The notes beneath the pieces are model-generated. The model worked only from the letters and a program-made list of their open reading frames with translations. It searched no databases and had not been told where the DNA came from. A stretch of DNA of 64,000 nt from Tubulanus polymorphus (Eukaryota > Animalia > Nemertea), in contig NC_134025.1 in the NCBI RefSeq assembly GCF_964204645.1, positions 17,893,101 to 17,957,100 of the forward strand. Reading direction: 5' to 3'. A program made the translations under genes and the position numbers. Of this stretch, positions 4,112 to 48,294 are shown piece after piece. Position 1 is the first letter of the stretch. Each line of letters opens with the position of its first letter.

Positions 4112-4163
4112 CTTAAGAACAAATGTATGAAATGTGATACATTTGTTGTGTGTTGCAAATGTA

Positions 4164-4666
4164 AGTAATAGATTAATAGGCTTTCAGGCCAAAGGTCGAA
4201 CGGTCGAGCTCATTAAAAACAAAACATTAAAAGTAATTTAAAAATATAATATATTTTCATAACCGTGTGCATTTTATATTATAACTAAATATTTATTCTA
4301 AGATATCAATAATTTAAAAAGCATATAATCAAATATATTTTAATAATAATAATTATTCTATTCTTCAACTGAAATACACATGGTTATGAAAATATATTAT
4401 AGTTTTAAATTACTTTTAATATTTGTTTTTAATGAACTCGACCATTCAACCTTTAACCTGAAAGCCTATTACCCCTATTACTCTTAAAATATTCATGTAA
4501 ATGAATAACATTTAAATTGATAGATTATTCAATATAAAAGTATATATTTACAACATTATTTCAATATTCATATTTGTGTGAGTTAGATTTTTAAACATTA
4601 AAAGTGTTAGTAAAGTGTGATTGAAATAATACATGATATAAATCATTGAACTTCTAAAATCAATTT
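4164..4666 (+). repeat. Left TIR of Polinton A1
   Basis: Near-perfect reverse complement of 18544-19047. Its first 319 bp (4164-4482) are themselves an inverted repeat. Confidence 0.95.
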
Positions 4667-4688
4667 TAATAAAAAATTTAGTATTAAA

Positions 4689-7600
4689 ATGGAAGCAAAT
4701 AAGTACTACTGCCCAACATGTAATATCAATATAGATAAATCCCAAAAAGCAAGACACAATAAAACTAAAACACATTTAGAGAATAAATTGAAACTAGAAT
4801 ATATAGATGATATATTAGAAACTAAATTAGATGAATTAAAGAATGAAAAAGAAACATATAAATGTGATGAATGTAATCAATCATTCAGTGATAAAAGATA
4901 TTATAATGAACATTTAAAATCTAAAAGTCATATTAGAAATAAGAATAATGATATTTTAGGTGAAGATTATTTTGATAAAGATAATGATAAGAAACAGAAG
5001 ACAATTAAAAGCATAAAAAATAAATTAAACAATAAAAGACCATACATGGAAGATGTAAGAAATTATATTAATTCATTTGATAATAAAAAAGATATAGAGA
5101 TAACCGAAGCATTTAAAAGTGATATTGGCCCAGCAGCTATCGACTTTAAATTTCATAAAGGAAAAACATTAGAAGAAAATAAAAAACATTTAGAAAATAT
5201 GAAAAATATTATAAAAATAATTACTGATGTTGAATATCCTAAAATTAGTATATCAGTTAAAGTAAAGTTTATAAAATCTGAAGATAAACCAATATATAAT
5301 ATAAATTCTCATTCACAACATAATATTTCAAAACAACATATAGATGATAAATTAGATAAATGTAATAATGAAGTAAAAACTAAAATAGAAGAGAAATATT
5401 TTGAAGGATCTGGTTTAATATTTGATGAAATAATATTTATGACTTTACATGTTTATAACACAAAATATAATAAGTTAACTAAATCAAAACCAATCGATGA
5501 AAATAATGTATCATATTATAAAGAACCAGATATTGAAGCATCGAGTTATATTAAACTACCATTTAAAACTAATGCTGTAATAAATGTACAAAATGAAGAT
5601 GATAAATGTTTTCTATGGACAATTATAAGTTGTTTACACCCAGTTGAAGATTATAATAAACATACTTATAGATTAACTCATTATAAACCGTTTGAAAATA
5701 ATTATAAGATAGATAAGTATCCTGTTATAATTAAAAACATCCCAAAAATAGAAAGAGATAATAATTTAAGAATAAATGTATTTGATTTAATCAAATTACC
5801 AAATACAAAAGGTAATAATATAAAACATTATACCTTAGAACCTTTATATCTATCAGAAGATTATGATTCAAACGATGTTATAGATATATTATATTATGAG
5901 AATCATTATATGTGGATTAAACAAATAGATTTATTCTTTAGAACAGAAAGTGATCACCATAATAAAATATATCTATGTAGAAAATGTTTACATAGATTCA
6001 GTAATGAAAGTACATTATTAAATCATAAACAATTATGTGAAAATCATGATTATTGTAAATTAGTTTTACCAAATGAAAAAGATAAAATATTAGAATTCAA
6101 AAAATATGATTACAAAAATAAAGTTCCATTTGTTATATATGGAGATTTTGAATCATTAAATAAAGAATTAACTGATCAAGATAGAAAAGAAATATATTAT
6201 AAAAGAAAGAAATTAAATTCTAATGAAAATGATTTTTCAGATGAACCACCAAAAACAAATACAATTAAAAAGATTCATCAATCAGCTGCAGCTTTCGGGT
6301 TATATATTAAATCTGATTATCCAGAACTAATTGAAAGTGAATATTATGATTATAGAAATGAAAATGTTATCAATCATTTTTGTGACTTATTAATTGAATA
6401 TGAAATAAGATTTAGTAAATTATTGAATACAAATATAGAATTTATAATGACAGAAGAAGATAACGAAGCATTTGAGTTTGCAGATAAATGTTATTATTGT
6501 GAAAAGATATTTAATTTTAGAGATAAAAAAGTAAGAGACCATGATCATTTGAACGGAAAGTTTAGAGGCGCTGCACATGAGAATTGTAACTTACAAGCTA
6601 AGAAAATTAACTTTGTACCAGTTATATTTCATAATCTATCAGGATATGATGCACATTTATTCATCAAACAGTTATGCCATAAAATAGAAGAAATTAATAA
6701 TGAAATAGAAAGATTAAATTCAAATAGATCAAAAGATAAAATACCAACTTATGAATTTAGAATGTTAGCTAAAACATCTGAGAATTATGTATCATTCCAA
6801 TTTGGTTGCCTAAGATTTATAGATTCATATAGATTTTTAAATAGTTCATTAGATAACTTATCAAAATCATTAGTTGATGATGAATTAAAGATATTAAAAG
6901 AATATTACCCAAATAATGATGAATTTCAATTAATGAGATATAAAGGAGCAATTCCATATTCATTTTATAAATCACATAATGATTTTAACATAACTGAATT
7001 ATTGAAAGAACAATTCTATGATGAATTAAAAAATGAATATGTTAAAGATGAAGTATATAATAGAACATTGAATATTTGGAATCATTTCAAAATAGAAAAT
7101 CATGGGCAATTAGTAGATATATATTTAAAATCAGATGTATTATTATTAACCGATATATTCGAAAGGATTAGAGATGTAAACCTAAAATATTTTAACATTG
7201 ATCCTCGTCATTGTTATTCATCACCAGGTTTAACATAGGATTGTGGATTAAAATTTACAGATATAAAAATGGATTTGTTAACAAATATAGATCAATTACT
7301 ATTATTTGAAAAATCTATAAGAGGAGGAGTTTCAGGTGTATTAGGGGATAGATATTTCAATGTAAATGATAACCCTGGATATAAGTTATTATATATAGAT
7401 GCAAATAATTTGTATGGTTGGGCAATGATGGAACCACAACCTTATGGAGTATTTGAATTAACTGAAGTTTTACAGAATGAAAATAATGATAAATTTGATT
7501 GGAAGAAAAGAATTCTAGATATTGCAGATGATTCAGATACTGGTTACTTCTTTGTTGTAGACTTAGAATATCCTGAACATATCAAATTTAAATCTAGAAA

Positions 7601-8726
7601 TCTAGCTTACTGCCCCGAACATAAAACTCATGAAGAATTATCAAATTACCAAAAAAGAATTAAACCCGAAAATCATATTCATACAGAAAAGTTAATGGTA
7701 ACTCAAGAAGATGAATATAATTATGTAGTACATTATAGAATGTTAAAGTTTTATTTGAATCAAGGAATGGTTCTAAAAAAAGTACATAGATATATTTCAT
7801 TTAGTCAATCTAAGTGGTTAGAAAAATATATAGATTTTAACACCAAACAGAGAACTGAAGCTAAAACTGATTTCGAAAAAGATTTCTTCAAGTTAATGAA
7901 TAATGCATTCTATGGTAAGACTTGTGAAAATATTAGAAATAGAAATGATATTGAGTTAGTCAGTAATGGTAAAAGAATTAGACATTTACAAACATATCCT
8001 AAGTTCATTGGTAACAGAATATTTGATGAAAATTTAGCTGCAGTTAAAATGAGAAGAACATCAATGAAATTTAATAAACCAATCTATGTTGGCGCTTCAG
8101 TTTTAGAATTATCAAAATTACTAATGTATGAATTCTATTATAATGTATTACAACCACTTTTTGGAGAAAAACGTATAGAAATATTATATTTTGATACTGA
8201 CAGTTACATATTAAAGATAAAAACTGATAACATAACAGATGATTTAAAAACATTAAAACATCATTTTGATTTCAGTAACTATCCTAAAGATCATGAATTG
8301 TTTAGCAATGGTAATAAAAAAGTTCCCGGTAAATTCAAAGATGAATTAGGCGGTGAAGAAATGATTGAATTCATTGGTATTAGATCTAAAATGTATTCAT
8401 ATAAAACTAAAGAACATGAAGCTAAAAAGTTAAAAGGAATAACCAAAAGTGTAGTAGAAAAGAATATTCATTTCAAAGATTACATCAATTGTATATTCAA
8501 TGAAGAAGTTAGAAAACATAAGATGAGATGTTTAAGATCTGAAGATCATGAAATGTTTATTGAAGAAATTGAAAAGATAAGTCTAAACCCATTTGATGAT
8601 TAAAGATATATTCTGGATGATGAAATTCATACAGTTGCTTATGGTTGTAATTAAGATGAATACTTAAAATTTAAAAGAGAAGAAACAAGAGAGAAAGAGA
8701 TAATGAAAAGAATTCTAACGTGTTAA
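4689..8726 (+). pseudogene. polB: Protein-primed family B DNA polymerase (pPolB) with N-terminal C2H2 fingers, vOTU-like and EndoVII-like domains; nonsense mutations
   Basis: ExoI IYGDFES, ExoII FHNLSGYDAH, YIDANNLYG, KLMNNAFYGK, YFDTDS. In-frame stops at 7236-7238 (TAG; TGG in A2), 8601-8603 (TAA; AAA in A2) and ~8652. Confidence 0.95.
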
Positions 8727-8755
8727 TCAAATTTTGATAAAAATATGTATTATAA

Positions 8756-9109
8756 ATGGAGAGTAAACAAACACACAGTGAGAACAACAAATTATTTCTA
8801 GATAGAATTAAAGATATAACAAATGTAAAATCTGTAGATTATAAATTCAAAAAGTTAACAGAATTAACAATCAATAAGAAATATCTAATTACAAATATTG
8901 ATACAGTTACTAATAACTATGGAGATAAATTAGTTATACACTTAGAATATGAAGGATTAAAAGGAAATACATATAAATTCAGAACATATTTACCAGATAG
9001 ATTTCATAGATTATCAAGTGAAGATTTAGAAGAATTATGTTCTGGAGATTTCTATTTCGTATACAAAGGTAAGAATAAAAAAGGGCATCATGAAATAGAT
9101 TTCGAATAA
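8756..9109 (+). CDS. Conserved 117-aa Polinton protein, possibly OB-fold ssDNA-binding
   Basis: Intact and nearly identical at 44519-44872. Beta-rich pattern KKLTEL..YLIT...TNNYGDKLVIHL...TYLPDRF. The function is inference only. Confidence 0.6.
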   Translation: MESKQTHSENNKLFLDRIKDITNVKSVDYKFKKLTELTINKKYLITNIDTVTNNYGDKLVIHLEYEGLKGNTYKFRTYLPDRFHRLSSEDLEELCSGDFYFVYKGKNKKGHHEIDFE

Positions 9110-9123
9110 AATATGTAAAATAA

Positions 9124-9830
9124 ATGGTGGAATTAAAAGAATACAGAATATTTGTTGATTCTAGAAGACTTACAGATTATAAATCACATAATTTACTAGT
9201 ACAATTAGATAGAGAATTCAAGAATTGTGTAGATTTAAAATTAGTAAATATAAGTTTATGTAATTCTTTTTATAATATATCGGATAAAACTATTGAACAT
9301 AGAGCTTGTTTAGTTTTTAATAGACACATAGATTCATTGGGTCTATATATATTTAAAACCGGGGTTATATAATTTAGATACATTAGCACAAGAAATTAAT
9401 AGAAAAGCCTGGCACAAATTAGGTAGTAGTTCTGGGTTTAGTATTAGATTTTTAAAAAGTGATAGTTCTGATAGAATAAAGATAAGGTTGTCTAATAGTG
9501 AAAAACATAAATTTATGGTAAAAAACCTATAGCTAAACTGTTAGGAATTCTTCCAGATAGATCTTTTACAAATATTGATGCTGCTACACCAAACTTAATA
9601 CCTTACACGCATTTTTATATTTATTGCAATTTAATCGATCCTACAAAAACATTCGAAGCAACTAAAGATATAACTTGTAATTCTGGTTTACTAAACATTT
9701 TACCATTGAAGAATGTTAAAGAATTTGGAACGCAAATAAATTATAATTTAACAGAATGTGATTTCAAACCATGCATTCCTCGTTTAAATAATTTTAGATT
9801 AGAAATTAGAAATCATAATGGTTACTTAAT
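9124..9830 (+). pseudogene. Minor capsid protein (penton, single jelly roll), frameshifted and 3'-deleted
   Basis: N-terminal IFVDSRR...FKNCVDLKLVNISLCNSFYNI and C-terminal HFYIYCNLID...LEIRNHNGYLI match the PLV/NCLDV penton pattern. Confidence 0.75.
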
Positions 9831-9860
9831 ATAAAAAGTAAATCATTTAACAATGCATCA

Positions 9861-10079
9861 ATGATTAATAAAGAAAATTATAATATAAAAAAAGTATTTT
9901 ATTTAATTAAATCACCTTTAGAATATTATGAATTAAATGAAGATGGAATTATTGATGATATTAAAAACATATTAACCAAAATATATGATAATCATAAAAG
10001 TAGTAATGAAATAAATGTTGAATTAATCATAAATAAGATAACTATATATTTTGAAGATAGTAATTTTTTTGATAAATAA
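9861..10079 (+). CDS. Hypothetical Polinton protein (partial homolog of 20415-20766 and 45524-45870)
   Basis: Shared C-terminus IIDDIK...INVELII.KIT.YFEDSNFF in several copies. Confidence 0.5.
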   Translation: MINKENYNIKKVFYLIKSPLEYYELNEDGIIDDIKNILTKIYDNHKSSNEINVELIINKITIYFEDSNFFDK

Positions 10080-10301
10080 ATGAGTGATAATAAGTGGATA
10101 ATAACTGGATTATATAATGGCGCATTATTATCAGTGGGAACTGTTGGTTATTCAATGGTATCAAAAAAAGTATTCAAAATGGGAAGTGTTAATGTTGATA
10201 GATTTGATATAAATGATATTTTAAAATTAACATTAGCAGTTACTTTATCTAATTTAACTATTGATTATTTAGAAAAACAAAAATATATTCCTCCCATATA
10301 A
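10080..10301 (+). CDS. Small hydrophobic 73-aa Polinton protein
   Basis: Conserved in all four copies; two hydrophobic/amphipathic stretches. Confidence 0.7.
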   Translation: MSDNKWIITGLYNGALLSVGTVGYSMVSKKVFKMGSVNVDRFDINDILKLTLAVTLSNLTIDYLEKQKYIPPI

Positions 10302-10325
10302 ATGCATAATTATTTTACTAAATAA

Positions 10326-10739
10326 ATGGCTTCTGCAGTTATAACTATTATAGGATCAGCAATTGTTAACGCTTTAGCATTTACTGGTGGCGGTTATTTA
10401 TTCAAGCATATTGATAAAAATGGATCATTAAGACATAACCTAGCATTAGAAAAATATAATAAATCTGCGGAAGAATATAGAGAAAAGAGGCAAAACTATA
10501 TGGATTATATTAACAAGGAATTATATGATCAGAAGATTTCACATAGAGATTTTCAATCAGTTGATGATGCAATGAGTTTATATAACGCGGTAACCAATAA
10601 AGAAAAATTACATCTATACAAACCTAAATTATCAGATTATTATACCCCAAGTAATGAACAGAAGAAATATGAAATAATATGGATTTTAGGCGGAACTGTT
10701 ATTGTTATATTTGTTGCTTATAAGTTTACTAATTATTAA
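10326..10739 (+). CDS. Putative membrane protein (N-terminal hydrophobic helix, C-terminal TM)
   Basis: MASAVITIIGSAIVNALAFTGGGYLF...IIWILGGTVIVIFVAYKF; conserved in four copies. Confidence 0.75.
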   Translation: MASAVITIIGSAIVNALAFTGGGYLFKHIDKNGSLRHNLALEKYNKSAEEYREKRQNYMDYINKELYDQKISHRDFQSVDDAMSLYNAVTNKEKLHLYKPKLSDYYTPSNEQKKYEIIWILGGTVIVIFVAYKFTNY

Positions 10740-10757
10740 TTTTTTTTTGCTAAATAA

Positions 10758-11177
10758 ATGGAAGATAAAGTTGATAATATTGATATTATTCCTCATGATA
10801 TAAATAAAACTAAATTAAAAATATATTTAGAAAAACAAATATTAGCATTTGAAAGTTACTTAAAAGTTAAAAAGAAAAAATATTTAAAATCCAAAATTAT
10901 ATATTATTTGATTATAAGTGGTTCGGTTACAATTAGTTCTGTAATAACATTTCTAGCAATATTCAGTCCATTAACACCTTTAGCTATATCAATTGGTGTA
11001 TTAGGATTAAGTTCAAGTGTTTTAACTGGTATAAGTTCAAAATTAAATATAAAAAGTAATAAAGAAAAAATTAAAACTAATATAAAAGAAATTAATAAAT
11101 TAAAGAATACACTAGATTATATAATAAGTTTAAATGGTCATATAACAGTTGAAGAACAAGATATAAATGGCAGATAG
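10758..11177 (+). CDS. Putative 2-TM plus coiled-coil protein
   Basis: IIYYLIISGSVTISSVITFLAIF and LAISIGVLGLSSSVLTGI. The 3' end is shortened by a small deletion relative to 46561-46937. Confidence 0.7.
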   Translation: MEDKVDNIDIIPHDINKTKLKIYLEKQILAFESYLKVKKKKYLKSKIIYYLIISGSVTISSVITFLAIFSPLTPLAISIGVLGLSSSVLTGISSKLNIKSNKEKIKTNIKEINKLKNTLDYIISLNGHITVEEQDINGR

Positions 11178-11651
11178 TTTTCCAAAAGCTTTCCAATATA
11201 ATAAACCAATTAAATATAATATTCCAGCAATAGATTTTAATAAAGATATTACATATAGAAATGAAGTTTTAAATTCATTAATTGATTTATATATTTATGT
11301 TACTCTAAGTAATAATTTTCATGTAAAGATGGAAAATATATTTCATGTGTATACAATTAATTTCAAAAATTTAAATGAGGCAAAACAATGGCTATTAAAA
11401 TCTAATATGAAGTATTGGCAGAACCAATTAAATTTTGCTGTTTTTTGCGCAACAACAGGTTGTGGAATTAGTTGGAATGATCATTTAAACAAACCAAGTT
11501 TACCATTGATGTTATCACTTTTTAGATAACTGATAATATTCAACATGAAATAATTAAAATAAATGATGATAATAAATCCCATGAAAATGCTAAATTAGCT
11601 TTAACTTGTATAGGAATTGTAATCGGAGGAATATTATATTTTCGATTTTAA
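11167..11651 (+). pseudogene. Conserved Polinton protein with C-terminal TM, internally deleted
   Basis: WQNQLNFAVFCATTGCGISW motif. About 0.85 kb present in A2 (46954-48278) is missing at ~11527. Confidence 0.7.
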
Positions 11652-11667
11652 TTTTTTTATTATGTAA

Positions 11668-13351
11668 ATGGCAGAAGGTGGAGAAGAAATTCCAATGGAT
11701 CCTTTAGATGAACCTGGTATAAGTGCAACCTGATTTTAGTGAAACAAGTTTTAATGACGGTAATGAGCCAGAATATAATACTAATTTAGGTGAAGATGAT
11801 GATTATGATGATGATTATGATGGAATTAATTCCGAATTACGTGAAAAATTAATTAAATATTTACAAGCTCCTGAAAGTGGTAGAATTTCAACTAGAACAG
11901 AAAGAAAAGAATTTATGGAACTATTAGTAGAACAACAAGAAAAATATCCTGATAAACCTATGGAATTATATAAAATGAAATCTAGAGTAACAGATACAAT
12001 TGTTAACGAACTATTACCAAAAGTTGTAATAGATGAAATTGATACTGAAGATGTTGTAGAACAAATTTTTAAAGATGACCCATATTTCACGAATAATTTA
12101 GAATTTAAAAATGATTCATGGTATTATAATCTTGAATTAAATAGGAATACCGTATCAATTCAATTATCTAGAATGGGTCAAGAAAATATTTTTGAACCTG
12201 GAATGCGAGCATTATCTACAATTGAAGGTTCAAAAGGTGGTAGAGAATTTCTCACAATTATATGGAATGCACTCGATAGAATAAATAAAGAAGGATCAAT
12301 TCCTAATATTGATATAAACAAATATTCACCATTTAAAAATCCAAATCCAAATCCTACTGATGTGTATCCAGAAATGGAAGAGTATGGAAATCGATTAGAT
12401 AAATTAAGATCTTCAACGCCCGAAACATCGAGAAGAGATATTCAACAAATTGATGATTATTCAAGTCAATTACCATTAGTATTAGGAAAACAAATTGATA
12501 GATTAAGTGATACAGAAGAACTGATTAATAGTATATCAGATACATCTGGAATAAATCGAATACAATCTTTACTAGAAAAAGGATTACTTGATTTAACTGA
12601 TGAAGAATTAAAACAATTTCCTGAAAAAGCACGTAGAGAAATTAAAGGTATGCAAGAATCAGCTGGTGAAATTGCTAATATTAAGATGAGATTTTCTAAA
12701 ATAACCATGTTAGAAAAAGAATTAGCTAATGCAAATGAAGAATTAAAACAATTAGAATTAAATAAAAATCTTCAGGAAGCTGATTATGAAAGCAGAAAGT
12801 TAGCTTTAGAAAAAAAAATTGATGATTTAGAATATAACAAAGAATTACAGGAAAAAGAAAGAGATATATTACTAAAATCATATGATCTTAATCATATTAA
12901 AAAATTAAAAGTTATTTTTAAAGAGTTAATAATGAAACCAGATTCTAAAATATCATTAAAAGATAGAATAAGATTATTATCTAAGTTAGAAGGAATCACA
13001 ATTCTTTCAATTCTAACAGCTGTAACTATGGTATTCACAACAATAGGTTTAGCAATATCAAATGCTTTGAAATCTACTCCTACTCCCAATAAACCAGATA
13101 AACCCCCGAATGATAATAATTCTATACAAGATAAAGTTAAGGATGGTTTAAAGAAATAAGCAAAATATTTATGGGAACTATCAAAGAAATCTGCTGCAGC
13201 ATTACCAGGAGTTATTGCATCAATTGTTGGTTTTATAATGAAATCTGCAGGAAACATTATTAACTTTGCTGCTGAACATATTATTTTATTTTTAATTACA
13301 GTTGTAAGTGCTATTATTTTTGGTTTAGTAAACGTGATAAAAAATAAATAA
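11668..13351 (+). pseudogene. Large coiled-coil protein with C-terminal membrane anchors
   Basis: Start MAEGGEEIPMD after TAAATG, frameshift near 11720 and lesion at 13157-13159. Heptad-rich region followed by hydrophobic helices ITILSILTAVTMVFTTIGLAI and IILFLITVVSAIIFGLV. Confidence 0.7.
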
Positions 13352-13371
13352 TTAATTTTTTTGTTAAATAA

Positions 13372-14619
13372 ATGAGTGGGAGTTATATCAATCCTTCTAA
13401 GAATCATAGAATATCTAATGCTATTAAAGCAGAAAGATCGCATCATATAATTACTCATAATCCTTCAAATATTAATCCCGATGAAACTTTATATGTTAGA
13501 ATTCCTAGATTAACACAAAATACTTTTTATGTTCCAAATAGTATTTATTTATCAGCCGATATAAAAGTAATTGGTCATGATAATAATTATGTTGTTGATA
13601 ATGTTGGGAGATATTTGATTAAAAAATTAACTATAAAGATTGGTCCAGAAACAGTTTTCTCATTAGATGATTATGATTTATTTATGCATTATAAAGATTT
13701 ATGGTTAACTAAAGCAAATAGAAATAATATGATATTTCAAGGCATCCAATCAGAAAACCAAAATAAATTAAGATCAGAAGCTAATAGCGCAATATTAACT
13801 AATGCTATAGATAAATTGATAAAAAGTATATATGGAAGCAAATATAAAATTCCATTAGACTTTGAATTGATAAATAACAATGCACCTTTATATAAATATG
13901 CAATTCAAGAAGACGTTATATTCGAAATAACATTTGCTCCTGTAAATGAAATTGTATTATCTAGCGTTGTTAAAGATATGAGTTATAAATTATCGAATAT
14001 ATGTTTAGAATATGACACAGTAACTGATGAAAATATTTCAAGTATAATTCAAACTCAATACAATCAAGGATTTTCATTATTATATGATTATATTGATGAA
14101 TTTAAAACTGTAACTATTAATGCAAATGATGAAATTATTAATGAGAATATTAACTTCCCAAGAAGATCTATTAAAGGTATATAATTATTTTTTACCATTG
14201 GAACATATACTAATGGCGCAATAAATGTTGATAATTATTATAATCCTGGAATAACAAAAGTAGAAATAACTATCGAAGGAATAGCAAATAAAATATTTTG
14301 TCAAGGAATGAGAATGATTGGTCAATGGCCAGAAATTAGAAAACATTATATGAATGAAAAAGTAAAATCATCTGAAAATTGTAACATTAATCAAATTGAT
14401 TATTATACCGGTAATAAATATGCATTATGGTTAGATTTTAGAACAACAGAGGATAATTCATTACATGGTTCTGGAAAAAAATTACAAAACACTAAAGATG
14501 GAATACAATTATTCATGACAAAGAAAAAAGGAAGCCTAAATTTCAAAATGCACATTTATATTATATCTGATGCGCAATTAAATATTGTAAATTCTCAATT
14601 AAATAGTGTTATGTATTAA
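13372..14619 (+). pseudogene. Major capsid protein (double jelly roll, ~415 aa), one nonsense codon
   Basis: Size, beta-rich pattern (LYVRIPRL, IKKLTIKIG, NICLEYDTV, ENINFPRRSIKG, ALWLDFR) and position in the morphogenetic module. TAA at 14182-14184 where A2 has TTA; the frame continues to 14619. Confidence 0.8.
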
Positions 14620-14651
14620 AATTTTAACTTTAATAAAAATTTATTATATAA

Positions 14652-14888
14652 ATGCAAGGAGGTAAAGTATATAAACATATTCCATACATCGATACACATG
14701 AAAATAATGATGGTTTATATTATGTAATACCTTGTAATATAGCTTTGATATTTGATCCTATTTCCAAAATTTATAAAACTAAACTAATAGAAATCGATAA
14801 TAATAAAAGTGAAGTTGTTCATAATTTAAGTAATGTAATTGATAATAATGTAATACCTTCTACATCTAATATAGATTATACGTATTAA
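14652..14888 (+). pseudogene. Truncated homolog of the 262-aa Zn-finger protein at 51058-51846
   Basis: First ~73 aa nearly identical to the A2 ORF, then runs into a TACGTATTAAA tandem repeat. Confidence 0.65.
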
Positions 14889-14930
14889 ATACGTATTAAA
14901 TACGTATTAGATACATAGGTATACAAATAG

Positions 14931-15536
14931 TTATTTTATAAATTTATATTCATATGGAAATTGTAATCTCAGTAATAATTTTGAACCTTTATTATTCTTT
15001 AATTTATTCATATATTCATCATGTAATTCAGTAGGTATAATTTGATTTTCTTCTAATGATTGATGCATAGATTTTTTATCTTTGTTATAAAATAAAACTA
15101 GAAATCTTATATTCTCCCTAAAGTCTTTAACAATTGAATTATATTTTTGATTTAAAACCCATGTTGTTATCCCAAAATGTCTTCCTGAGAAAGCTAAATA
15201 ACATAACTCACATAACTTTGAATCTTGTAAATTTGCGCAATCATCTATAATGAATAATGTATTTGATCCTTTATAAGTATCAATTGCTATTTTAATACAA
15301 TTATCTAAATTTTCTTTTACTGTTTTAGGATTTAATATAATAAACTTTTTTATCTTAACTATATCTCTATTATATGTTTTATTCATTTCATAAGTAGGAC
15401 AGAATAATATTATATTATCAAAATGATTCTTATAAATAGTTTCTAACAAGTCTAATATGAAATGTGTTTTACCACAGTTTGTTACACCAGTAACTAACAT
15501 ATTATGCGGTTAGAATATAAATAAATCTTTATTCAT
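14931..15536 (-). pseudogene. A32-like (FtsK/HerA) genome packaging ATPase
   Basis: Walker A GVTNCGKT, Walker B LFIIDD, SGRHFGITTWVLNQKY. An early stop near 15510 is absent from the intact A2 copy. Confidence 0.92.
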
Positions 15537-16618
15537 TTATTCTTTTAATTTTACTAGATAAAATCCATTCATTAAATTTATCATCGTATCCTTTATATTT
15601 CACCAAAGAATACTTTTTTCCTTTAAGAGTTTTTGTTTTCAATACTTTTTCTATTTTGTATTCTATTTCATCTGGATTTGGTACAAGTGATAATTCTTGT
15701 TCATAAAAATAACCTAATATTTCTTCATCTTTTATATCTTCTAGTTTATAAACAATAATTTAGTTAATATTATCTTTTTAATTTTAAATATTTCTTCTGT
15801 AAAATTAGGGGTATAACCTTTATAAAAGGTTTTTCTATATTTAGATATTCTAACGTGCTGTCCAATTTTAAATTTAGGTTCGCCGAAATCATGTGTAACA
15901 AACGCACCATATAAATTATTCCAAACTATTTCCGAATTATCTTCTTTTCTAGCTTGTATAGGTTTCATATTTATAGAACTATGTTTAGAATATTATAACC
16001 TTTCACTAAATCATCTAATACATCGATATATTTATATGTTTCATTAGCAGTAAAATATTTCCACATTCTAGTTTTCAATGTTTTATTAAATCTTTCTGTA
16101 ATAGATGCTTTTTTATCTGAATGTGTTGAAAAATAATCTACATCGTTATCAGATAATAGTTTTTTAAAATGTTTGTTATAAAATTCCTTACCTTCATCAA
16201 ATTGTATCTTATCTGGAATAGCTTCTTTAAATATTGATTTAAAAGCATTTGTAACTTCTATTCCAGTTTTATTTTGGATTGGAATTGACCATGCGTGTCG
16301 ACTGAATATGTCTATAACATTTAATATCCAGAAATATCCTTTGTTGTATTCCTCTAAGTTCTTCATGTCAATTAAATCTGCTTGCCATTGTTGATCGATA
16401 TATGAAACCATAACTTTTCTTGTTAAATAAATTTTATCCATTTTCTTGTGGATTTGATATGTTGGTTGATTTTGTAACCATGATTTTAATTCACTAGATT
16501 TTATATTACCATTTTCAATATCAGATTTAATTTTATTCCATAATTCTGAAACGTTAGAATATGATACTTCACTTTCTGGGTTATAATATAACTCTCTTAA
16601 ATATTGTTCTTTTTTCAT
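15529..16618 (-). pseudogene. int: Retroviral-type (rve) integrase with C-terminal chromodomain, frameshifted
   Basis: WQADLIDM, VIDIFSR, IQFDEGKEF, ERFNKTLK, FKIGQHVRIS, and chromodomain EYKIEKVLK...LVKYKGYDDKFNEWI. Frameshifts near 15990 and 15755. Confidence 0.93.
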
Positions 16619-16624
16619 CTTATT

Positions 16625-17000
16625 TTAATCCATTAATAATAATTTAGATTTAGTTTCAATGGCTTTATGATTTGACTTATTTTCTGGTATGATAGGTTTA
16701 TTGTCATTGGAATCATCTTTATCATCAGATTTGAATTTTGATTTATATATTACACCAGATAATATAAGAACTGTTACTAATCCAATTGTAATATATAATT
16801 TATAATTACTTCCAGCATTAGAAGAATCAGATGGATTATTATTTGAATTAATATCAGATGAAGTCTGTGACTCATTTATTTCAGTTAATTTCTTTTTCTT
16901 AGCTTTTTTTAATTCTGAAGAATCTTTTACCTAATTCTCTTGCCCATTTAATTTGTTTCTCGGATCTAGCCTTTTTCTTAACTCCATCACTCTACTCATT
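16625..17000 (-). pseudogene. Small basic protein with C-terminal TM helix (disrupted)
   Basis: Hand translation KKKARSEKQIKWARELGKR...YITIGLVTVLILSGVIY; homologous at ~53990-54345. Confidence 0.55.
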
Positions 17001-17008
17001 TATTTTAG

Positions 17009-17605
17009 TTAATTTTTGTTCTGATTCATTTTCTGTTTCGCCGTTTGGTTGTCGTGCGGCGCCATCTGTTTCGTTCTTACCTGATTTATATTTATATTCC
17101 GAGGTTTGATATTCGAAAATGTTATGACACCAGTAGAAATAAATGTCGTAACCGATCCTAATTGAAATGAAGCATAACCAACCCATTTTTGTAATTCAGT
17201 CATAACTAAATAGTCATTTTTCAAATCACTATATAATTTATTTTCATCATCAATTGGCATTAACTGGTTACATAACTTAGAATAACATTTGACAATACCA
17301 TCTGAAATAGAATCATTTATTCTAGCTAATCTAGCTTCTTCATAAATCTTAAAATATTTTATTACTTTATCTGGTTTCATAGCATCTAATTCTTGAAATG
17401 TAATTATTTTCCCGATAAACTGATTACATTTCCCGCCAGCAATTAATAATTCTAGATGATGCTTACAATATAAATAGTATTCATAATCTTTATTACAATT
17501 AACTTGAGCACAATTAGTTACAACTGTATCTTTATTATCACTTATACCCAAATCATCTAATGTCTTTTCAATATCAATACTTTTCTTATTAGATTTCTTT
17601 GACAT
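17009..17605 (-). CDS. Hypothetical Polinton protein
   Basis: 198-aa ORF preceded by TAAATG; homolog at 54345-54946. Confidence 0.65.
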   Translation of the reverse strand: MSKKSNKKSIDIEKTLDDLGISDNKDTVVTNCAQVNCNKDYEYYLYCKHHLELLIAGGKCNQFIGKIITFQELDAMKPDKVIKYFKIYEEARLARINDSISDGIVKCYSKLCNQLMPIDDENKLYSDLKNDYLVMTELQKWVGYASFQLGSVTTFISTGVITFSNIKPRNININQVRTKQMAPHDNQTAKQKMNQNKN

Positions 17606-17853
17606 TTATATTAGAGAAAAAAAGCAAAAAAAATATTATAAGTATTCTTCAAATGATGCCAGTATCTCTTTAGATTAATACTAGCTTAGTTAAAGGTAAA
17701 GAATTTTAGTATTAGTTATTGTTTTTTAGTATTTTTTATTTGCGATATAAAGTATTCTTTTTTTAAAAAGAAAATATTAAAAATATAATAGAATTCACTA
17801 GCTAAGTGAAGTTATTGTTTTTTTAATATTTTTTATTTAAAATCTATTATTCT

Positions 17854-18521
17854 TTAACCACTAATTAAAGACTCAACGTATTGTTCATTATTTGGATCAT
17901 TGTTCCATTGATCAATAAATTTCTTTGCCTTTGTTAACTGTTCTAAATATTACTGTAAATCTAGTTTATTAGATTTAATTATGTTTTCCTTCTTTTCTAA
18001 AGGTCTTAGATTCTTCCAATTCCAAATAAGTTTTTTATTGTATTCATCATTCATGTCAAATTTAGAAATCGTAACGTATGATCAATATGAAAGTATTCAC
18101 CATAATTATTTATATTCATTTTATCATCGAATTGAAATATAATCCATGATTTGAGAAATTCATCTGAACAACCCAATAAATTAGATAGTGTTTCTGAATG
18201 TGTTTCTTTGTTGAATAATTGTGTTAATCTAGTCCTTAAGCATTGTTTCAATCTAAAATTAAGATCTGTTTGATATCTTACTCTCATATATTCTGCCATA
18301 TAATAATTATAATGTTCTATATTATCTTCTCGATATTGTTTGGTATATAGTTTAGTGCAAGTTTTACAGCAATATTGAAAACCATCTTTGCTAATCTTAC
18401 GCTTATTAAATTCTATTATAGCTAATTTATCTATATCACATTTAGAACACTTCTTGTAGTATATGTTTATGACACCAGTGTTATTTGTAATATTGATAGT
18501 TTGTGGTTGTTCTGATTGCAT
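17854..18521 (-). pseudogene. HNH endonuclease with N-terminal Cys cluster (NCLDV-like), frameshifted
   Basis: CSKC...SKDGFQYCCKTC and FHIDH motifs; intact homolog at 55194-55853. Confidence 0.8.
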
Positions 18522-18543
18522 TTATTATACATATTTTTTTACT

Positions 18544-19047
18544 AAATTGATTTTAGAAGTTCAATGATTTATATCATGTATTATTTCAATCACACTTTAC
18601 TAACACTTTTAATGTTTAAAAATCTAACTCACACAAATATGAATATTGAAATAATGTTGTAAATATATACTTTTATATTGAATAATCTATCAATTTAAAT
18701 GTTATTCATTTACAAGAATATTTTAAGAGTAATAGGGGTAATAGGCTTTCAGGTTAAAGGTTGAATGGTCGAGTTCATTAAAAACAAATATTAAAAGTAA
18801 TTTAAAACTATAATATATTTTCATAACCGTGTGTATTTCAGTTTAATAATAGAATAATTATTATTATTAAAATATATTTGATTATACGCTTTTTAAATTA
18901 TTGATATCTTAGAATAAATATTTAGTTATAATATAAAATACACACGGTTATGAAAACATATTATAGTTTTAAATTACTTTTAATATTTGTTTTTTAATGA
19001 GCTCGACCGTTCGACCTTTGGCCTGAAAGCCTATTACCCCTATTACT
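18544..19047 (-). repeat. Right TIR of Polinton A1
   Basis: Reverse complement of 4164-4666; the terminal 320 bp (18728-19047) are self-complementary. Confidence 0.95.
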
Positions 19048-19784: not shown

Positions 19785-20766
19785 GTTCCTAAAATCCAAA
19801 TTATTTCATATTTCTGTTGTTCTTTACTTGGGGTATAATAATCTGATAATTTAGGTTTGTATAGATGTAATTTTTCTTTATTGGTTACCGCGTTATATAA
19901 ACTCATTGCATCATCGACTGATTGAAAATCTCTATGTGAAATCTTCTGATCATATAATTCTTTATTGATGTAATCCATATAGTTTTGTCTCTTTTCTCTG
20001 TATTCTTCTGCAGCTTTATTATATTTTTCTAATGCTAAGTTATGTCTTTTTTGTTCTGATAATGAACCATTTTTATCAATATGCTTAAATAAATAACCAC
20101 CACCAGTAAATGCTAAAGCGTTAACAATTGCCGATCCTATAATAGTTATAATTGCAGAAGCCATTTATTTAGTAAAATAATTACGCATTTATAAAGGAGG
20201 AATATATTTTTGTTCTTCCAAATAATCAATAGTTAAATTAGATAAAGTAACTGCTAATGTTAATTTTAAAATATCATTTATATCAAATCTCTCAACATTA
20301 ACAATTCCCATTTTAAATACTTTTTTTAGATAAAATTGAATAACCAACAGTTCCAACTGATAGTAAGGCTCCATTATATAATCCAGTTATTATCCACTTA
20401 TTATCACTCATTTATTAATCAAAAAAATTACTATCTTCAAAATATTTAGTTATCTTAGTGATGATTATTTCCACATTTATAGTATTATTAGTTTCATTTG
20501 TATATATTTCAATTATTATTTTTTTAATATCATCGATGATAAAATTTTCATCTAATTCATAAAATCTTAAAGATTCTCTAATTAAATTAGTAATCTTTTC
20601 TACATTTAAACTTTCTTTACCTATTGTTGTTTCATACTCAAATGTAGTTTCATTAGAAAATGTAATATTTTTAATATGTGTATTTACATCAGTAATGTTA
20701 AATTTCATTTTTATCACGTTTAAAATCAAATCCAAAACAAATACTTGGTCCAACAGTTATATTCAT
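19785..20766 (-). pseudogene. Small structural-module genes of B-minus (homologs of 9861-10739)
   Basis: ORFs starting at 20766, 20411 and 20164, each preceded by TAAATG; high identity to the A1/A2 proteins. Confidence 0.8.
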
Positions 20767-20782
20767 TTATATATCAAAAAAT

Positions 20783-21570
20783 CTACTCTTTACATCTTAT
20801 AACTAATTCATAAATTACAGGAAAGTTATTCAAATCAATTAAATATCCATTGTGATTTCTTACTTCTAATTTAAAATTATTGAAATGTGAAATACAAGGT
20901 TTCAAATCACATTCTGTTAAATTATAATTTATTTGCGTTCCAAATTGTTTAACATTTTTTAATGGTAAAATATTTAATATACTAGAATTACAAGTTATAT
21001 CTTTCGTTGCTTCAAATGTCTTTGTAGGATCAAATGAATTGCAATAAATATAAAAGTGTGTAAAAGGCATTAAATTTGATCTACCTTCTATGTTTGCTCT
21101 AACAATCATTTTATCTGGAGGAATTCCTAACAGTTTAGCTAAGGGTTTTTTTTAACCCCGAAAGCATATTTTTTTAATCCCTAAATCATTTTTAATTTCA
21201 TCATTTAACTTTATTTTAATTTTATTAGAACTCTCACTTTTTATGAATCTAATATTAAATTTAGAATCACCTCTAATTTGTATTCGTGCTTTTCTATTAA
21301 TTTCTTGAGCTAATGTTTCTAAATTATATAATCCTGGTGTTAGCATAAGATGAACCCATTTATGATAACTTTAAAAAAAATTAAAAAGGCTCTATGTTCA
21401 TCAGTTTTATCTGATACATTATAAAAAGAGTTACATAAACTTATATTTACTAATTTCAAATCTACACAATTCTTAAATTCTCTATCTAATTTTACTAATA
21501 AATTATGTGATTTATAATTTGTAAGTCTTCTAGAATCAACAAATATTCTGTATTCTTTTAAATCTACCAT
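20783..21570 (-). pseudogene. Minor capsid protein (penton), frameshifted
   Basis: Three consecutive ORF fragments from MVDLKEYRIFVDSRR to NGYLIDLNNFPVIYELVIRCKE. Confidence 0.75.
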
Positions 21571-21638
21571 TATTTATAACATAAAAAAATTACTGCTCAT
21601 CACTAAAAATTAATTTTAATAAAATTTTTCCTAAATAA

Positions 21639-22931
21639 ATGGATGAGAAGATAGGATGTGAAATTTGTGGTGAACTTCTAAGAAAAAGTAATATGGCTCG
21701 ACATATGAAAAAACACGATAAAAATTATAAACCCCCTAAACTAAACTGCCCAAATTGTAATAAATTATTCTCAAGAAATTATGTTAAAAAACATTCCGAG
21801 AAGTGTAAAATTAATGACACAACGGTTGATAGTAACGAAAGTAATAGTAATTCTGTTCAAACTGAACCTGAAATTATTTGGAAAAGACCTTTCTTATTCT
21901 ATGATAAGGATGATATAAAAGATCATTTCTGTGAGCATTGTCGAATAAAATATTGCCCTGAAAATATAGAAGATTGGGAGAATCATCAATTTCGTAAACT
22001 ACATATAGATAAAATTTCTAATAAATTTGAAACAGAATTCAATGAAAGAAAAAATAGTTTATTAGAAAAAATAAAATATGAGAAAACGTTACCAGATAAT
22101 AAAGAAACAGTTGAAAAGTTAGATAAACAATATAATGAATTAGTAAGAAAAACATATTATTGTAAATATTGTAAATTGATTATTACAACAAGTAATTTAA
22201 ATCTACATAATAGAACAATAAAACATAAAGAAAACGTAAGAAAATACCAAGAGCTTAATGAAGATATATTACCAAGCTATGATAGACCAAAATGCCCACA
22301 ATGTATTTATAGGTATTTAATTCAACAAGGTCCTGTGATATTTTGTAATGAATGTGGATGGCAAAAGAATTTATGGGGTGATGAAAATTAGAGATATTCT
22401 TATAGAACCAAAATTAAAATATCTAGATGAAATATTTAATATATTTCCTATGGAAGATCATACACCAGAATATAAGCAATGGCTTGAAAAAATGAAAATG
22501 ATAGAAAATAAAAATGTTGAAATAACTAAAAAAGATATTATAAAAACAATTATTCCGTCAACATTTAACACACAAGAAAAGAAAATGTATTTATATCTAT
22601 TATTTAACGATTATTATAAAAAACCTAAATTAACAGAAGAAGATATGGAAAATATAAAAGAAACATTCACAAACATATTAAAATATTATGTGGATTATAG
22701 AATAACAGATTCAATTAATTATGAATTCTTTTTAAATAAGATTGTAAATTTTTCAAACATCGATATTATAATTCCATTTGATGAATTAACGAACAAAAAG
22801 AAACAAAGAGAGCGAGATGAAATGTGGCACAATATAGAACTTTGAATGAGAAAAATGAAATGAAAGAACCTAAACAAATCATACAAAAACAATTAAATGA
22901 AAAAGAAGAAACCAGTAGTGATTTCGAGTTT
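21639..22931 (+). pseudogene. Multi-zinc-finger protein of subfamily B (frameshifted)
   Basis: CEIC..RHMKKH, CPNC..KHSEKC, CEHC..H..H, CKYC..HNRTIKH, CPQC..CNEC. Continues in the 22348-22845 frame; homolog at 25790-27117. Confidence 0.75.
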
Positions 22932-22948
22932 GATGATATTGATCCATT

Positions 22949-23404
22949 TTAATAACCATAAGGTAATGTTTTTATACCATCATCTAAAATATGCCTTTTA
23001 TCATCAAATGGATTCAAACTAGTTTTTTCAACTTCATTAATGTACATATCGTGATCTTCTGATCTTGAACAATTCATTTTATGTTTCATTACAAATGAGT
23101 TATATAAACACTTTATATAATCTTGAAATTCTATATGTTTATCAACCACATGTTTTGTTATTCCTTTTAACTTTTTAGCTTCATGATCTTTTGTTCTATA
23201 ACTATACATTTTACTTCTTATCCCAACAAATTCAATCATTTCATCACCCCCTAGTTCATCTTTAAATTTACCAGGAATCTTTTTATTATCATTGCTAAAT
23301 AGTTCATGATCTTTGGGATAATAGCTAAAATCAAAATGATGTTTTAATGTTTTTAAGTCTTTTGTTATATCATTTGTCTTGATTTTTAGTATGTAACTGT
23401 CGGT
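22949..23404 (-). pseudogene. polB: pPolB C-terminal part (C-extein) of B-minus
   Basis: TDSYILKIKT...PGKFKDELGG...GIRSKMYSY...KKLKGITK...LNPFDDKR. Confidence 0.9.
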
Positions 23405-23555
23405 ATTTTTTTGGATTAATGGGAACCCAGAATTGAATGTTCCATCATCTGTTGATAAATCATAAACATAGTCAGTTGGGTTATATATTTCAAATAAATC
23501 TTTAACTTCTTCTGTTAATTCTTTTTCTATATGCCTTAAATTAAAACAATTTGGA
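23405..23555 (-). mobile_element. C-terminal fragment of a Pol-c intein (blocks F/G)
   Basis: Minus-strand translation ...YNPTDYVYDLSTDDGTFNSGFPLIQKN|TDSYIL; Asn|Thr junction at 23405/23404. Confidence 0.85.
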
Positions 23556-25806
23556 AATTTTATATTAACAGAAGTAGAAAATGATGATAAAACTAATTGG
23601 GAAAGCGCAATTATGAGTTTAGAAGATGATGCTCCAATTGGTTATTTCTTTGTAATTGATTTAGAATATCCTAATGATGATATAAAATTAAAATATAAAA
23701 ACTTACCATATTGCCCAGAACATTAAGCCGTAGATGATAGTTATCTAAATGAATACCAGAAAAAAATAAAACTGAACGACCATGTTTTTACAGAAAAATT
23801 GATATTAACACAAAATAATGAATGTAATAATATTGTTCATTATAGAATATTAAGATTTTATCTAAAACAAGGAATGAAATTAAAGAAAGTACATAGAAAT
23901 ATTGAATTTAATCAATCGAAGTGGTCCGAAAAATATATAGATTTCAATACTCAACAGAAAACAATATCTAAAACAGATTTTGAAAAAGATTTTTTTTAAA
24001 TAAATGAATAATAGTTTTTATGGAAACATGTGAACATATTAGAAATAGAAATGATATTGAATTAGTAAGTAATTCTGAACGATTGAGACATTTACAATCG
24101 AGTCCTGGACACTTAGGAAATAAAAGATTTGAAGATTATTCAACAGCAGAACAATTAAAAAGAACGTCAATGAAATCTAATAAACCAATATTCATTGGTT
24201 CAACTGTTTTAGAAATATCAAAATTATTAATGTACGATTTTTATTATAATGTTTTACAACCACTTTTTGGGGAAAAGCATATAGAAATCTTATATTTTGA
24301 TTCTGTAATAGCTGATACTCCAATATTATTAAAATACAATAATGAAATGTTAATTAAAAGAATTTCAGAAATAATTCCTAAACAAAATGAACTTTATATT
24401 TCGTATGGTGAAAAAGAATTAATATAAATTAATGAATAAATGGATGGACAAAAAATGAATGGGAAAAATTAAAGAATATAATGAGACATAAAACAAATAG
24501 GAAAATCTATAGAGTTAGAACTAAATTACGGTTTGTAGATGTTACTGAAGATCATAGTTTAATTAAACAAAATCGTGATAAAACCAACTGATATAGAAAT
24601 TGGAGATGAATTATTACATAAAAAATTCTATTCAAGAATGAATCATATGTCATTTGATGAAATAATTAATAATATCTGTAACATTAGAAGAAAAAGAATA
24701 TTTTATCAAAGGATTCTTTATGGGAGATGGTTCAGCAGGTGTTTATAAATATGTTAATTGCACAAAATATTGTTGGTATTTATGTAATCAAGATTTGAAA
24801 TTATTAGGAAGAATTAAAAAATACTGTGAAGAAGTTTATTCACACAAAGTTTTTAAAATCATAGATATTATGAAATCATCAGCAGTTTATAGAATATATG
24901 TAAATAATCCTAAAGATTTAGCAATTAAATATAATGATGAATTCTATATTCACGCAATAGTAAAAAGCAATACTTCAACAAAATAAAAGGTAGTCCCAGA
25001 TTATGTATTAAATGCAAAATATAATTCAAGAAAATGGTTCTTCGTTGGATTCTACGCAGCAGATGGTTTAAAAAAATATACAAAAACAAAAACTTTCATT
25101 TGCTCAAAAAATAAAAGTTGCTATATCAGGATTGATTAAATATTTTATGCAATTCAGTAGGTTTTAATATGAATATTGGATTAATTAAATCTAAACCGAA
25201 AATATTTAAATTAAGGTATGTTGAAAAAGAATTAACTGAAGAAGTTAGAGATTCATTTGAAATATATAACCCAACAGATGATGTATATGATTCAACGACT
25301 GAAGATGGTACATTTAATTGTGGATTTCCATTAGTTTGCTTAAATACAGATGCTTACATACTAAATCAAGACAAAATCAAGACAAATAACATATCAAAAG
25401 ACTTAAAAACATTAAAACATCATTTTGACTTTAGCAATTATCCAAAAGATCATGAATTATTTAGCAACGATAATACAAAAATTCCTGGATAGTTTAAAGA
25501 TGAATCAGGGAGTGATGAAATGATTGAATTTGTTGGGATAAGAAGCAAAATGTATAGTTATAGAACTAAAGATCATGAAGCTAAAAAGTTAAAAGGAATA
25601 ACAAAGCATGTGGTGGATGAACATATAGAATTTCAAGATTATATTAAGTGTTTATATAAATCAATAGTAATGAAACATAAAATGAATTGTTTAAGATCAG
25701 AAGATCACGAGATGTACATTAATGAATTTGAAAAAAACTAGCTTAAATTCGATGATAAAAGATATATTTTGGATGATGGAATAAAAACATAACATAACGG
25801 TTATTA
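23551..25806 (+). pseudogene. polB: pPolB 3' half containing an intein
   Basis: YFFVIDLEYP, FEKDFF, KPIFIGSTVLEISKLLMYDFYY, EILYFD|intein|TDAYIL, GIRSKMYSY; multiple stops and frameshifts. Confidence 0.9.
24302..25345 (+). mobile_element. Intein with LAGLIDADG homing endonuclease at the Pol-c site (degraded)
   Basis: 1044-nt insertion between D and T of YFD|TD. Block A SVIADTPILL, block B VDVTEDHSLI (24535-24564), LAGLIDADG blocks GFFMGDGS (~24711) and GFYAADG (~25047), block F VYDSTTEDGTF, block G LVCLN|T. Confidence 0.9.
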
Positions 25807-27117
25807 AAACCGTATCAATATCATCATACTCGAAATCACTATTGGCTTCTTCATTTTCATCTAATTGTTTTTCTATAATTTCTTTAGGTTCCGTCACTTC
25901 ATTTTTCTCATTTAAATAAAATTCTATATTATTCAACATTTCATCTCGCTCTTTTTGTTTCTTTTTCTTTGTTAATTCATCAAATGGAATTATAATATCG
26001 ATGTTTAAATAATTTACAATGTTATTTCAAAAGAATTCATAATTTATTGAATCTGTTATTTCATCATCCGCACAATATTTTAATATTTTTATGAATGTTT
26101 CTTTTGTATTTTTCAAATCTTCTTTTGTTAATTTAGGTTTTTTATAATAATCGTTAAATAATAAATATAAATACATTTTCTTTCCTTTTGTGTCACATGT
26201 TAATGGCATAATTTTTTTTATTATATCTTTCTTAGTTATTTCACCATTTTTATTTTCTGTCATTTTCATTTTTTCAAGCAATTGCATATATTCTAGTGTT
26301 TGATCTTCTGTAGAAAATATTTTAAAGATTTCATCTAGATATTTTAGTTTTGGTTCTATTAGAAAATCTCTAGTTTTTCCATCAGCCCATAAATTTCTAT
26401 GCCATCCACATTCATTACAAAATATCATAGAATCTTCTTGTTTTAGATACTCGTAAATACATTGTGGGAATTTTTTTCTATCATATCTTGGCAATAGATG
26501 TTCATTAAGTTCTTGGTATTTACTTACGTTTACTTATGTTTTATTGTTTTATTATGTAGATTTGAATTGCTTGTTGTAATATTCAATATTAACAATAATA
26601 TGTTTTTCTTACTAATTCATTATATTGTTTTTCTAAATTTTCAAGTGTTTCTTTATTATCTGGTAACGTTTTCTCATATTTTATTTTTTCCAACATATTA
26701 TTTTTTCTTTCATTTAATTCTGCTTCAAATTTATAAGAAATTTTATTTAAATGTACTTCATTTAATTGGTGTTTCTCCCAATCTTCTATATTTTCAGGAC
26801 TAAATTTTATTCGACAATGCTCACAGAAATGATTCTTTGTATTATTCTTGTCATAAAATAAAAAAGGTCTTTCCCAAATAGGTTCAACTTCAACCGAATT
26901 ATTAAAACTCTCGTTACTATCAACATTAACTATTAAGTCATTAAATTTACACGTCTCTGAATGTTTTTAAAAATAATTTCTAGAGAATGTTTTATTACAA
27001 TTTGGACAGTTAAATTTTAGGGGGTTTATAATTTTCATCATGTTTTTTCATATGTCGAGCCATATTACCTTTTCTGTCAAGTTCACCACAAATTTCACAT
27101 TCTATCTTCTCGTCCAT
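25790..27117 (-). pseudogene. Multi-zinc-finger protein of B-plus (decayed)
   Basis: Start MDEKIECEICGEL; collinear with 21639-22931. Confidence 0.75.
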
Positions 27118-44872: not shown

Positions 44873-44886
44873 AATATGTAAAATAA

Positions 44887-45507: not shown

Positions 45508-45523
45508 TTTTTTCACTATATAA

Positions 45524-46937: not shown

Positions 46938-46953
46938 TTTTTTAATTATATAA

Positions 46954-48278: not shown

Positions 48279-48294
48279 TTTTATAATTATGTAA

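Follow-up and report, generated by a model that had tools for sequence, protein, structure and literature searches.

The 64,000-nucleotide window analysed here, from the nemertean Tubulanus polymorphus (NC_134025.1, positions 17,893,101 to 17,957,100), contains an integrated Polinton/Maverick (Polintoviricetes), hereafter called copy A, in which TAAATG is found at 13 of 15 gene starts. These sites are probably poxvirus-type post-replicative promoters, for which a poxvirus-like helper would supply the RNA polymerase. Three things were observed directly: how the signal is laid out, that it is confined to part of the capsid tree, and that no transcription genes were detected in the element. From these we infer dependence on a helper. 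The starts in copy A were set by homology to intact relatives; the two that differ belong to the genes for the protein-primed DNA polymerase B (pPolB; TAAAATG) and the integrase (TAAGATG). For a 16th gene, of a 126-aa family, no start survives in copy A; in a second copy, A2, it begins with TAAATG at 45521. The initial annotation had reported TAAATG at nearly every Polinton start, and all 17 of the sites it listed (12 in copy A and five in other copies) were correct in coordinate and strand, although it missed the site at 17002 on the minus strand, which heads a 130-aa family gene.

Both backgrounds in the element are low, and the definition of open reading frames (ORFs) is therefore not the source of the signal: TAA precedes 45 of the 611 other ATGs in copy A (7.4%; binomial p = 2e-13 for the starts), and the first ATG after a stop is TAAATG in 39 of 395 short chance ORFs (9.9%). 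When all ORFs of at least 70 aa were counted, with broken pieces and shadow ORFs included, 11 of 21 began with TAAATG. The non-Polinton parts of the window gave 0 of 23 ORFs of at least 70 aa, a weak control insofar as most of these are not true host gene starts. The predicted enrichment over composition-matched shuffles was confirmed with each start's own 30 upstream bases, which end in TAA at 76 of 93 starts where 7.1 were expected.

The same motif was then counted in related Polintons. Sixty-one proteins came from a capsid search, and an alignment of 43 of them was used to fetch 54 metagenome loci and one partial genome locus (numbered with the prefix L below); capsid scans of viral contigs returned no relative. 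Start contexts were counted for ORFs of at least 100 aa, and the main count covers 31 of the 55 loci; six were left out as near-duplicates, two because their capsids were frame-broken and sixteen for being short or partial. On a capsid tree of 39 rows the window copies belong to a 15-row clade. TAAATG was found at 45 of 50 starts in 11 loci of this clade, as compared with 74 of 1782 other ATGs, and at 11 of 12 starts in five loci from two neighbouring lineages. It was found at 1 of 72 starts in 12 loci of the sister clade, where 59 of the 72 have a purine at -3, and at none of 17 starts in three loci of uncertain tree position (Fisher p = 1.6e-26 for related against sister loci). Clade loci with a GC content of 0.32-0.44 keep the motif (14/16) and AT-rich sister loci rarely have it (1/21), so that composition does not explain it. 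Orthologous gene families change their start context with the clade, and the motif is kept among capsid proteins down to 33-36% identity. As a label on the capsid tree TAAATG requires 2 changes, against 12.9 for shuffled labels, which indicates clustering and not a single origin, since kin share labels. The trait is lineage-specific, not compositional. The earlier view of pPolB and integrase as exceptions applies to the window and not to the family: the pPolB gene of L046 and the integrase gene of L002 start with TAAATG, and in L005 and L033 the integrase has TAAAT displaced by 2-3 bases. Nor is the motif confined to late or structural genes: SSB-like, HNH, kinase and pPolB genes also begin with it.

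The signal is bipartite and about 20 bp long, with an A/T-only block at -15 to -9, a spacer, and TAAAT laid over the ATG. Positions -15 to -13 are A-rich, -12 to -7 are T-rich and -6/-5 form a free spacer; G and C are excluded at -15 to -9 and enriched at -6/-5, and the ATG is followed by G in 65%. A preceding T-run, previously described as usual, is present at roughly half the sites (TTTT at -14 to -6 in 38/76; 12 expected), and the constant feature is instead a T at -9, found in 67 of 76 (33.5 expected from shuffles). This T marks 89% of 74 TAAATG starts and 34% of 139 internal TAAATG. TAAAT lies 2-3 bases away from its usual place on the ATG at five starts, in four of which the T at -9 moves with it. 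Head-to-head genes only 15-30 bases apart each have a TAAATG of their own (eight pairs among those listed). Together, these features favour a signal that initiates transcription over one for translation or polyadenylation. Depletion of T-runs was set aside as evidence, since TTTTT on the sense strand is depleted both in the clade (observed/expected 0.53) and in the sisters (0.57) and A-runs are depleted in the clade too.

In vaccinia late promoters TAAAT, typically followed by G, overlaps the start codon, and a T is conserved at the tenth base upstream among less conserved T's, as described in PMC11980589 and PMC5294985; the 5' poly(A) is templated at the vaccinia initiator by slippage, as described in PMC4542343. 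By analogy, transcription of the Polinton genes would begin in the AAA of TAAAT, and a slipping polymerase would extend the 5' end with a poly(A) leader. The resulting mRNA would read AAAAUG, with the T at -3 removed, and would be free of the Kozak rule. TAAATG sites place at -3 a T, the base that the Kozak context disfavours; sister Polintons whose GC content is the same carry a purine there. A purine at -3 was common to 47 of 47 eukaryotes in the survey of PMC2241899, and a T there would therefore be sensible mainly if it is not transcribed. No match to RNA polymerase, capping enzyme or transcription-factor families was found among the ORFs scanned in the element or the clade loci, and a viral-type promoter would therefore need an outside polymerase. 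The element would rest integrated, as its integrase and target-site duplication suggest, and would be switched on when a helper infects the cell. It would then be copied by the pPolB that it encodes, together with its SSB-like protein, and be packaged in its own capsid, as mavirus is with Cafeteria roenbergensis virus (CroV), and would in this way work like an endogenous virophage. The helper polymerase proposed in the initial annotation is favoured to this extent: the motif is above chance, departs from the Kozak context, is not coupled to stop-start junctions, has a vaccinia-like layout in two parts and occurs in an element that itself shows no transcription genes.

A virophage-like lifestyle had also been offered as an explanation for an intein in the window, of LAGLIDADG type and located in the pPolB gene of a further partial copy, copy B. 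Relatives of this intein numbered 186 at E <=0.001, and 33 of the 35 best ones scanned carry an RNA-primed PolB domain, which points to large DNA viruses. When five intein carriers were compared with solved structures, two were nearest to Pol delta, two were nearest to PDB entry 8ywg, which we take to be the polymerase of African swine fever virus (ASFV), and one had no match. The intein thus points broadly to such viruses without marking any one of them as the helper. Deoxynucleoside kinase genes were found in two clade loci (L001:10340-10981 and L008:2898-3377; PF01712, E ~1e-31), the former starting with TAAATG. Kinase and intein alike are consistent with contact with large DNA viruses.

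Several results weigh against a poxvirus-like helper or are neutral. None of the five intein carriers compared has a poxvirus-type polymerase. Scans of viral contigs with three accessory genes gave no helper candidate: the kinase returned one locus (L056; 37% identity, large-virus-like by eye, TAAATG at 1/19 starts), the intein one phage locus (L057; E 3e-4) and a VLTF3-like gene none. A division by gene class into intermediate-like (A-rich) and late-like (T-rich) promoters was not seen between 56 core and 23 accessory starts (p = 0.38, 0.45). The published vaccinia T is the tenth base (PMC11980589), and the fixed T of the Polintons was counted at -9. Short head-to-head gaps are also found in the motif-less sister Polintons and do not discriminate. 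AATAAA is not avoided within clade ORFs (observed/expected 0.96) and is weakly avoided in those of the sisters (0.85), a test that fails to tell transcription in the nucleus from that in the cytoplasm. Within 80 bases after clade stops AATAAA occurs in 28 of 74 cases, with 16.9 expected; this fits host polyadenylation and is confounded by the AATAAATG of the next gene. Coral polintoviruses are reported as expressed, and a helper goes unmentioned in the text consulted of PMC11131425. An integrated nuclear element would also have to meet a cytoplasmic polymerase, a step for which the helper model offers no explanation, and unannotated clade proteins may include a divergent factor encoded by the element itself.

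A viral-type promoter could also be read by a polymerase of other than poxvirus origin, supplied either by another lineage of large DNA viruses with a TAAAT initiator or, in trans, by a second element, linear or a larger Polinton, that accompanies the first and carries a reduced RNA polymerase, as pGKL2 does for pGKL1 in yeast. Transcription of the yeast linear elements relies on a TAAAN initiator, involves slippage and is carried out by a polymerase of their own (described in PMC6211774), TAAAT-like motifs have been reported for iridovirus promoters, and the intein kin tested are delta-like or resemble 8ywg. We nevertheless hold this source to be unlikely, because the exact overlap with the ATG and the upstream T element are the poxvirus arrangement, and because an RNA polymerase gene was found in no clade locus, though most of these loci are partial.

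The sites might instead be compact nuclear core promoters for host RNA polymerase II, in which a TATA-binding protein would occupy the A/T block beside an initiator, perhaps with a factor encoded by the element; the likeness to poxviruses would then be convergent or a relic of past use of a helper. The element integrates in the nucleus, as the target-site duplication attests, sister Polintons have similarly compact intergenic regions, and the reported expression of coral polintoviruses (PMC11131425) would agree with host transcription. TATAAA or AATAAA also spans the motif at many sites, with AATAAATG at 35 of 76. A TATA box at the ATG would, however, direct initiation about 24-30 bases downstream, within the ORF, and TATAWA is not enriched at -60 to -25. 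A templated untranslated region would moreover retain U at -3, contrary to the eukaryote-wide purine bias described in PMC2241899. The presence of AATAAATG showed no association with an upstream gene on the same strand (20/40 with such a gene and 7/22 without; p = 0.19). Host polymerase II is in our judgement an improbable reader of these sites.

A translational role, with an in-frame stop before the ATG on read-through mRNAs acting in termination-reinitiation or as a guard against upstream ORFs, is very unlikely. TAA is indeed in frame with the ATG, and true stop-start junctions make up 5 of the 76 sites, a number small enough to uphold the earlier statement that most are not. The codon before the ATG is TAA in 65 cases and never TAG or TGA, where true stops are divided 47/10/9 (p = 3e-10 when stop usage is allowed for). 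TAAATG also stands before first genes and head-to-head genes, and in the shifted variants TAAATATG and TAAATAATG, the latter found at the start of the minor capsid gene in copy B, TAA is out of frame while the T at -9 is retained; the upstream element would be left unexplained. The frequency of TAAATG in the element (3.5 per kb) might point to mere chance in DNA so rich in AT, or to a Kozak context of the usual kind with an AT bias. Both can be dismissed for practical purposes given the shuffles and the AT-rich sister loci above, unless the host's genes likewise place a T at -3. A poxvirus-like helper thus remains the reading we prefer.

Copy A itself has long terminal inverted repeats (TIRs) of about 535 bp, the right one 95.7% identical to the left, together with AG...CT ends and a 6-bp target-site duplication (TSD), all of which define a Polinton (Table 1). 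The outer 319 bp of each TIR (4164-4482 and 18728-19047) form an imperfect palindrome of 78-82% with arms of about 115 bp, whose inner end bears a second, inverted copy of the element terminus; fold-back during replication and a terminal mini-element are possible origins. A DDE_Tnp_4 transposase lies to the left (2825-3760), and an ORF with a presumed THAP-like motif adjoins the right end (19232-19477); both speak for a probable animal host. Many genes are interrupted in the window copies, which are therefore decaying.

Table 1. Polinton copies in the window, their genes and TAAATG sites, numbered from the first base of the window.
Feature	Position	Strand	Remarks
Polinton/Maverick copy A	4164..19047		full length; AG...CT ends; GC 0.24; stops break several genes
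6-bp TSD	4158..4163 (left), 19048-19053 (right)		flanks copy A
Left TIR of copy A	4164..4697	+	inner end holds pPolB upstream element and ATG (TAAAATG, T at -9)
pPolB with endonuclease VII domain	4689..8603	+	two ORFs, in-frame stop; start TAAAATG
TAAATG and 117-aa gene	8753..9109	+	predicted OB fold, likely ssDNA-binding protein
TAAATG and probable minor capsid gene	9121..9830	+	broken; family common to sister Polintons; label presumed from position and a motif
TAAATG and 73-aa conserved Polinton gene	10077..10301	+	sole stop-start junction in copy A
TAAATG and 137-aa conserved Polinton gene	10323..10739	+
TAAATG and 139-aa gene	10755..11177	+	two-helix membrane type
TAAATG and first part of 442-aa family gene	11164..11529	+	upstream element deleted in copy A, kept in A2 (46951)
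TAAATG and 485-aa family gene	11665..13340	+	broken by early stop
TAAATG and double-jelly-roll major capsid gene	13369..14619	+	broken, two ORFs
TAAATG and accessory zinc-finger family gene	14649..14888	+	truncated in copy A
TAAATG (15539) and A32-like packaging ATPase	14931..15539	-	early stop; PF04665 E 2.2e-10
rve integrase	15541..16618	-	broken; PF00665 E 2.7e-9; start TAAGATG, no motif
TAAATG (17002) and 130-aa family gene	16620..17002	-	broken
TAAATG (17608) and 198-aa conserved Polinton gene	17009..17608	-
TAAATG (18524) and HNH-like gene	18051..18524	-	weak PF01844 match in L002 homolog
Right TIR of copy A	18513..19047	-	inner end holds TAAATG (18524) and ATG of HNH-like gene
Copy B fragments	19788..27366		rearranged; TAAATG at 20167, 20414 (minus), 21636 (plus)
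LAGLIDADG-type intein	24302..25345	+	broken; in motif C of copy-B pPolB
Third partial copy	34968..37141	+	TAAATG at 35840, 36078, 36522, 36973
Copy A2	42201..57863		without left end; 88-93% to copy A; three starts with decayed motif
TAAATG sites of copy A2	44516, 44884, 45521, 46115, 46558, 46951, 48292, 49774, 51055, 54950, 55856

Among the gene products, the window pPolB groups by BLAST with that of L020, which itself matches PF03175 (E 6e-19), while the window pieces on their own match endonuclease VII only. The 117-aa protein (8756-9109; L001:125-469) has a predicted OB fold whose best matches are a phage single-stranded DNA-binding protein (SSB; E 3e-5) and the PRD1 SSB P12 (E 3.6e-3), and it is likely a protein of this kind. 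The major capsid protein has a weak Capsid_N match, and the Atlas neighbours of a capsid homolog (score 0.97-0.98) include Capsid_N/DJR clusters and Preplasmiviricota; the capsid profile gave 0 matches against PDB sequences. A predicted model of the 442-aa family (pLDDT 59) had no viral fold match. An identity of the gene at 14652 with Pox_B6 (E 0.004) was below the cut-off and was rejected. No adenain-type cysteine protease was matched by Pfam or NCBIfam in the ORFs scanned, those of copy A and the 11.5-kb L001 included, several of which are unannotated.

Partial copies (copy B, a third fragment and copy A2) occupy much of the remaining window. A second piece of the copy-B polymerase gene, which lacks the intein, is inverted at ~22950-23640. 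The right TIR of copy A2 contains a 1.6-kb insertion (55883-57512) with a 242-aa ORF on the minus strand (56246-56974), for which no Pfam match, NCBIfam match or TAAATG was found.

A different context was observed in the sister loci, where ATATA lies within 30 bases of the ATG at 34 of 110 starts (14.6 expected from shuffles), with a peak at -20 to -5. ATATA or TATA 5-20 bases before the ATG was seen in L016, L017, L018, L014, L020 and other sister loci. This is too near the ATG for a polymerase II TATA box, and no excess was found at TATA-box distance. The signal is uneven between loci (10/14 in L016, 0/15 in L022) and weaker than TAAATG; ATATA also follows stops in the sisters (13/99; 5.9 expected). 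The late initiator of ASFV is TATA at the start site, as described in PMC7163114, and the resemblance of the sister ATATA to it may serve as a lead only. L016 also contains a 165-aa gene (5082-5576) with a weak Pox_VLTF3 match (E 3.6e-5; 24 bits, cut-off 25) and no homolog in the other loci. It is possible, though we put it forward tentatively and with some doubt, that a widespread branch of animal Polintons consists of endogenous virophages of Pokkesviricetes, with the present clade adapted to a poxvirus-like helper and the ATATA sisters to asfarvirus-like helpers. If so, promoter type would record helper switching, and poxvirus relatives would be predicted in aquatic invertebrates.

A poxvirus-type promoter on nearly every gene would make the expression and autonomy of animal Polintons directly testable. 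A true dependence on a helper would extend virophage-like parasitism to integrated animal elements and would predict poxvirus relatives where none are known. Start context would also provide a means of sorting Polintons by helper from sequence alone.

A literature search on TAAAT(G) or poxvirus-type late promoters in Polintons/Mavericks gave no paper describing them among the records listed. The window element resembles other animal Polintons/Mavericks, namely the adintoviruses (PMC8502044) and the coral polintoviruses (PMC11131425), in its TIRs, 6-bp TSD, pPolB, rve integrase, A32 ATPase and jelly-roll capsids. It differs from them in that the adenain protease was undetected in the loci of this clade, and the word promoter is absent from the main texts of both papers, as it is from a preprint (10.64898/2026.10.13.758929). 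The yeast elements pGKL1/2 are likewise protein-primed, AT-rich and intronless with a TAAA-type initiator; unlike the window element, they are described as encoding an RNA polymerase of their own as well as a capping enzyme, and as having no capsid or integrase (PMC6211774). The signal itself is closest in layout to the vaccinia and mpox late promoter, with TAAAT over the ATG, a conserved T and flanking T's some ten bases upstream and a short spacer, in all about 20-30 bases. It is set apart by its place in a 15-kb integrating Polinton without detectable transcription machinery, by an A-run that often precedes the T, and by the fact that a separate early or intermediate class is not demonstrable in this clade. 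AHEV_PLV1/2 and CBEV_PLV1, Polinton-like viruses associated with entomopoxviruses, are also related to Polintons and tied to a poxvirus, and the capsids of two of them group beside the mavpol2 clade, as described by Barth et al. 2024 (PMC11296320). In contrast to the window Polintons they encode a cysteine protease and lack an rve integrase, and the main text of that paper contains none of the words promoter, motif and transcription. Sharing of helper promoters has been described for mavirus-like elements (with CroV), Sputnik and Gezel-14T (with PgV) (PMC8547959, 10.1101/2022.07.28.501842). Like these, the window element integrates, encodes a capsid and carries at its gene starts a promoter motif of large-virus type that differs by lineage. 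In those systems, as described, the motifs are of Mimiviridae type (TCTA, AAAATTGA), the hosts are protists and the helper is known, whereas here an animal Polinton carries a motif of poxvirus type.

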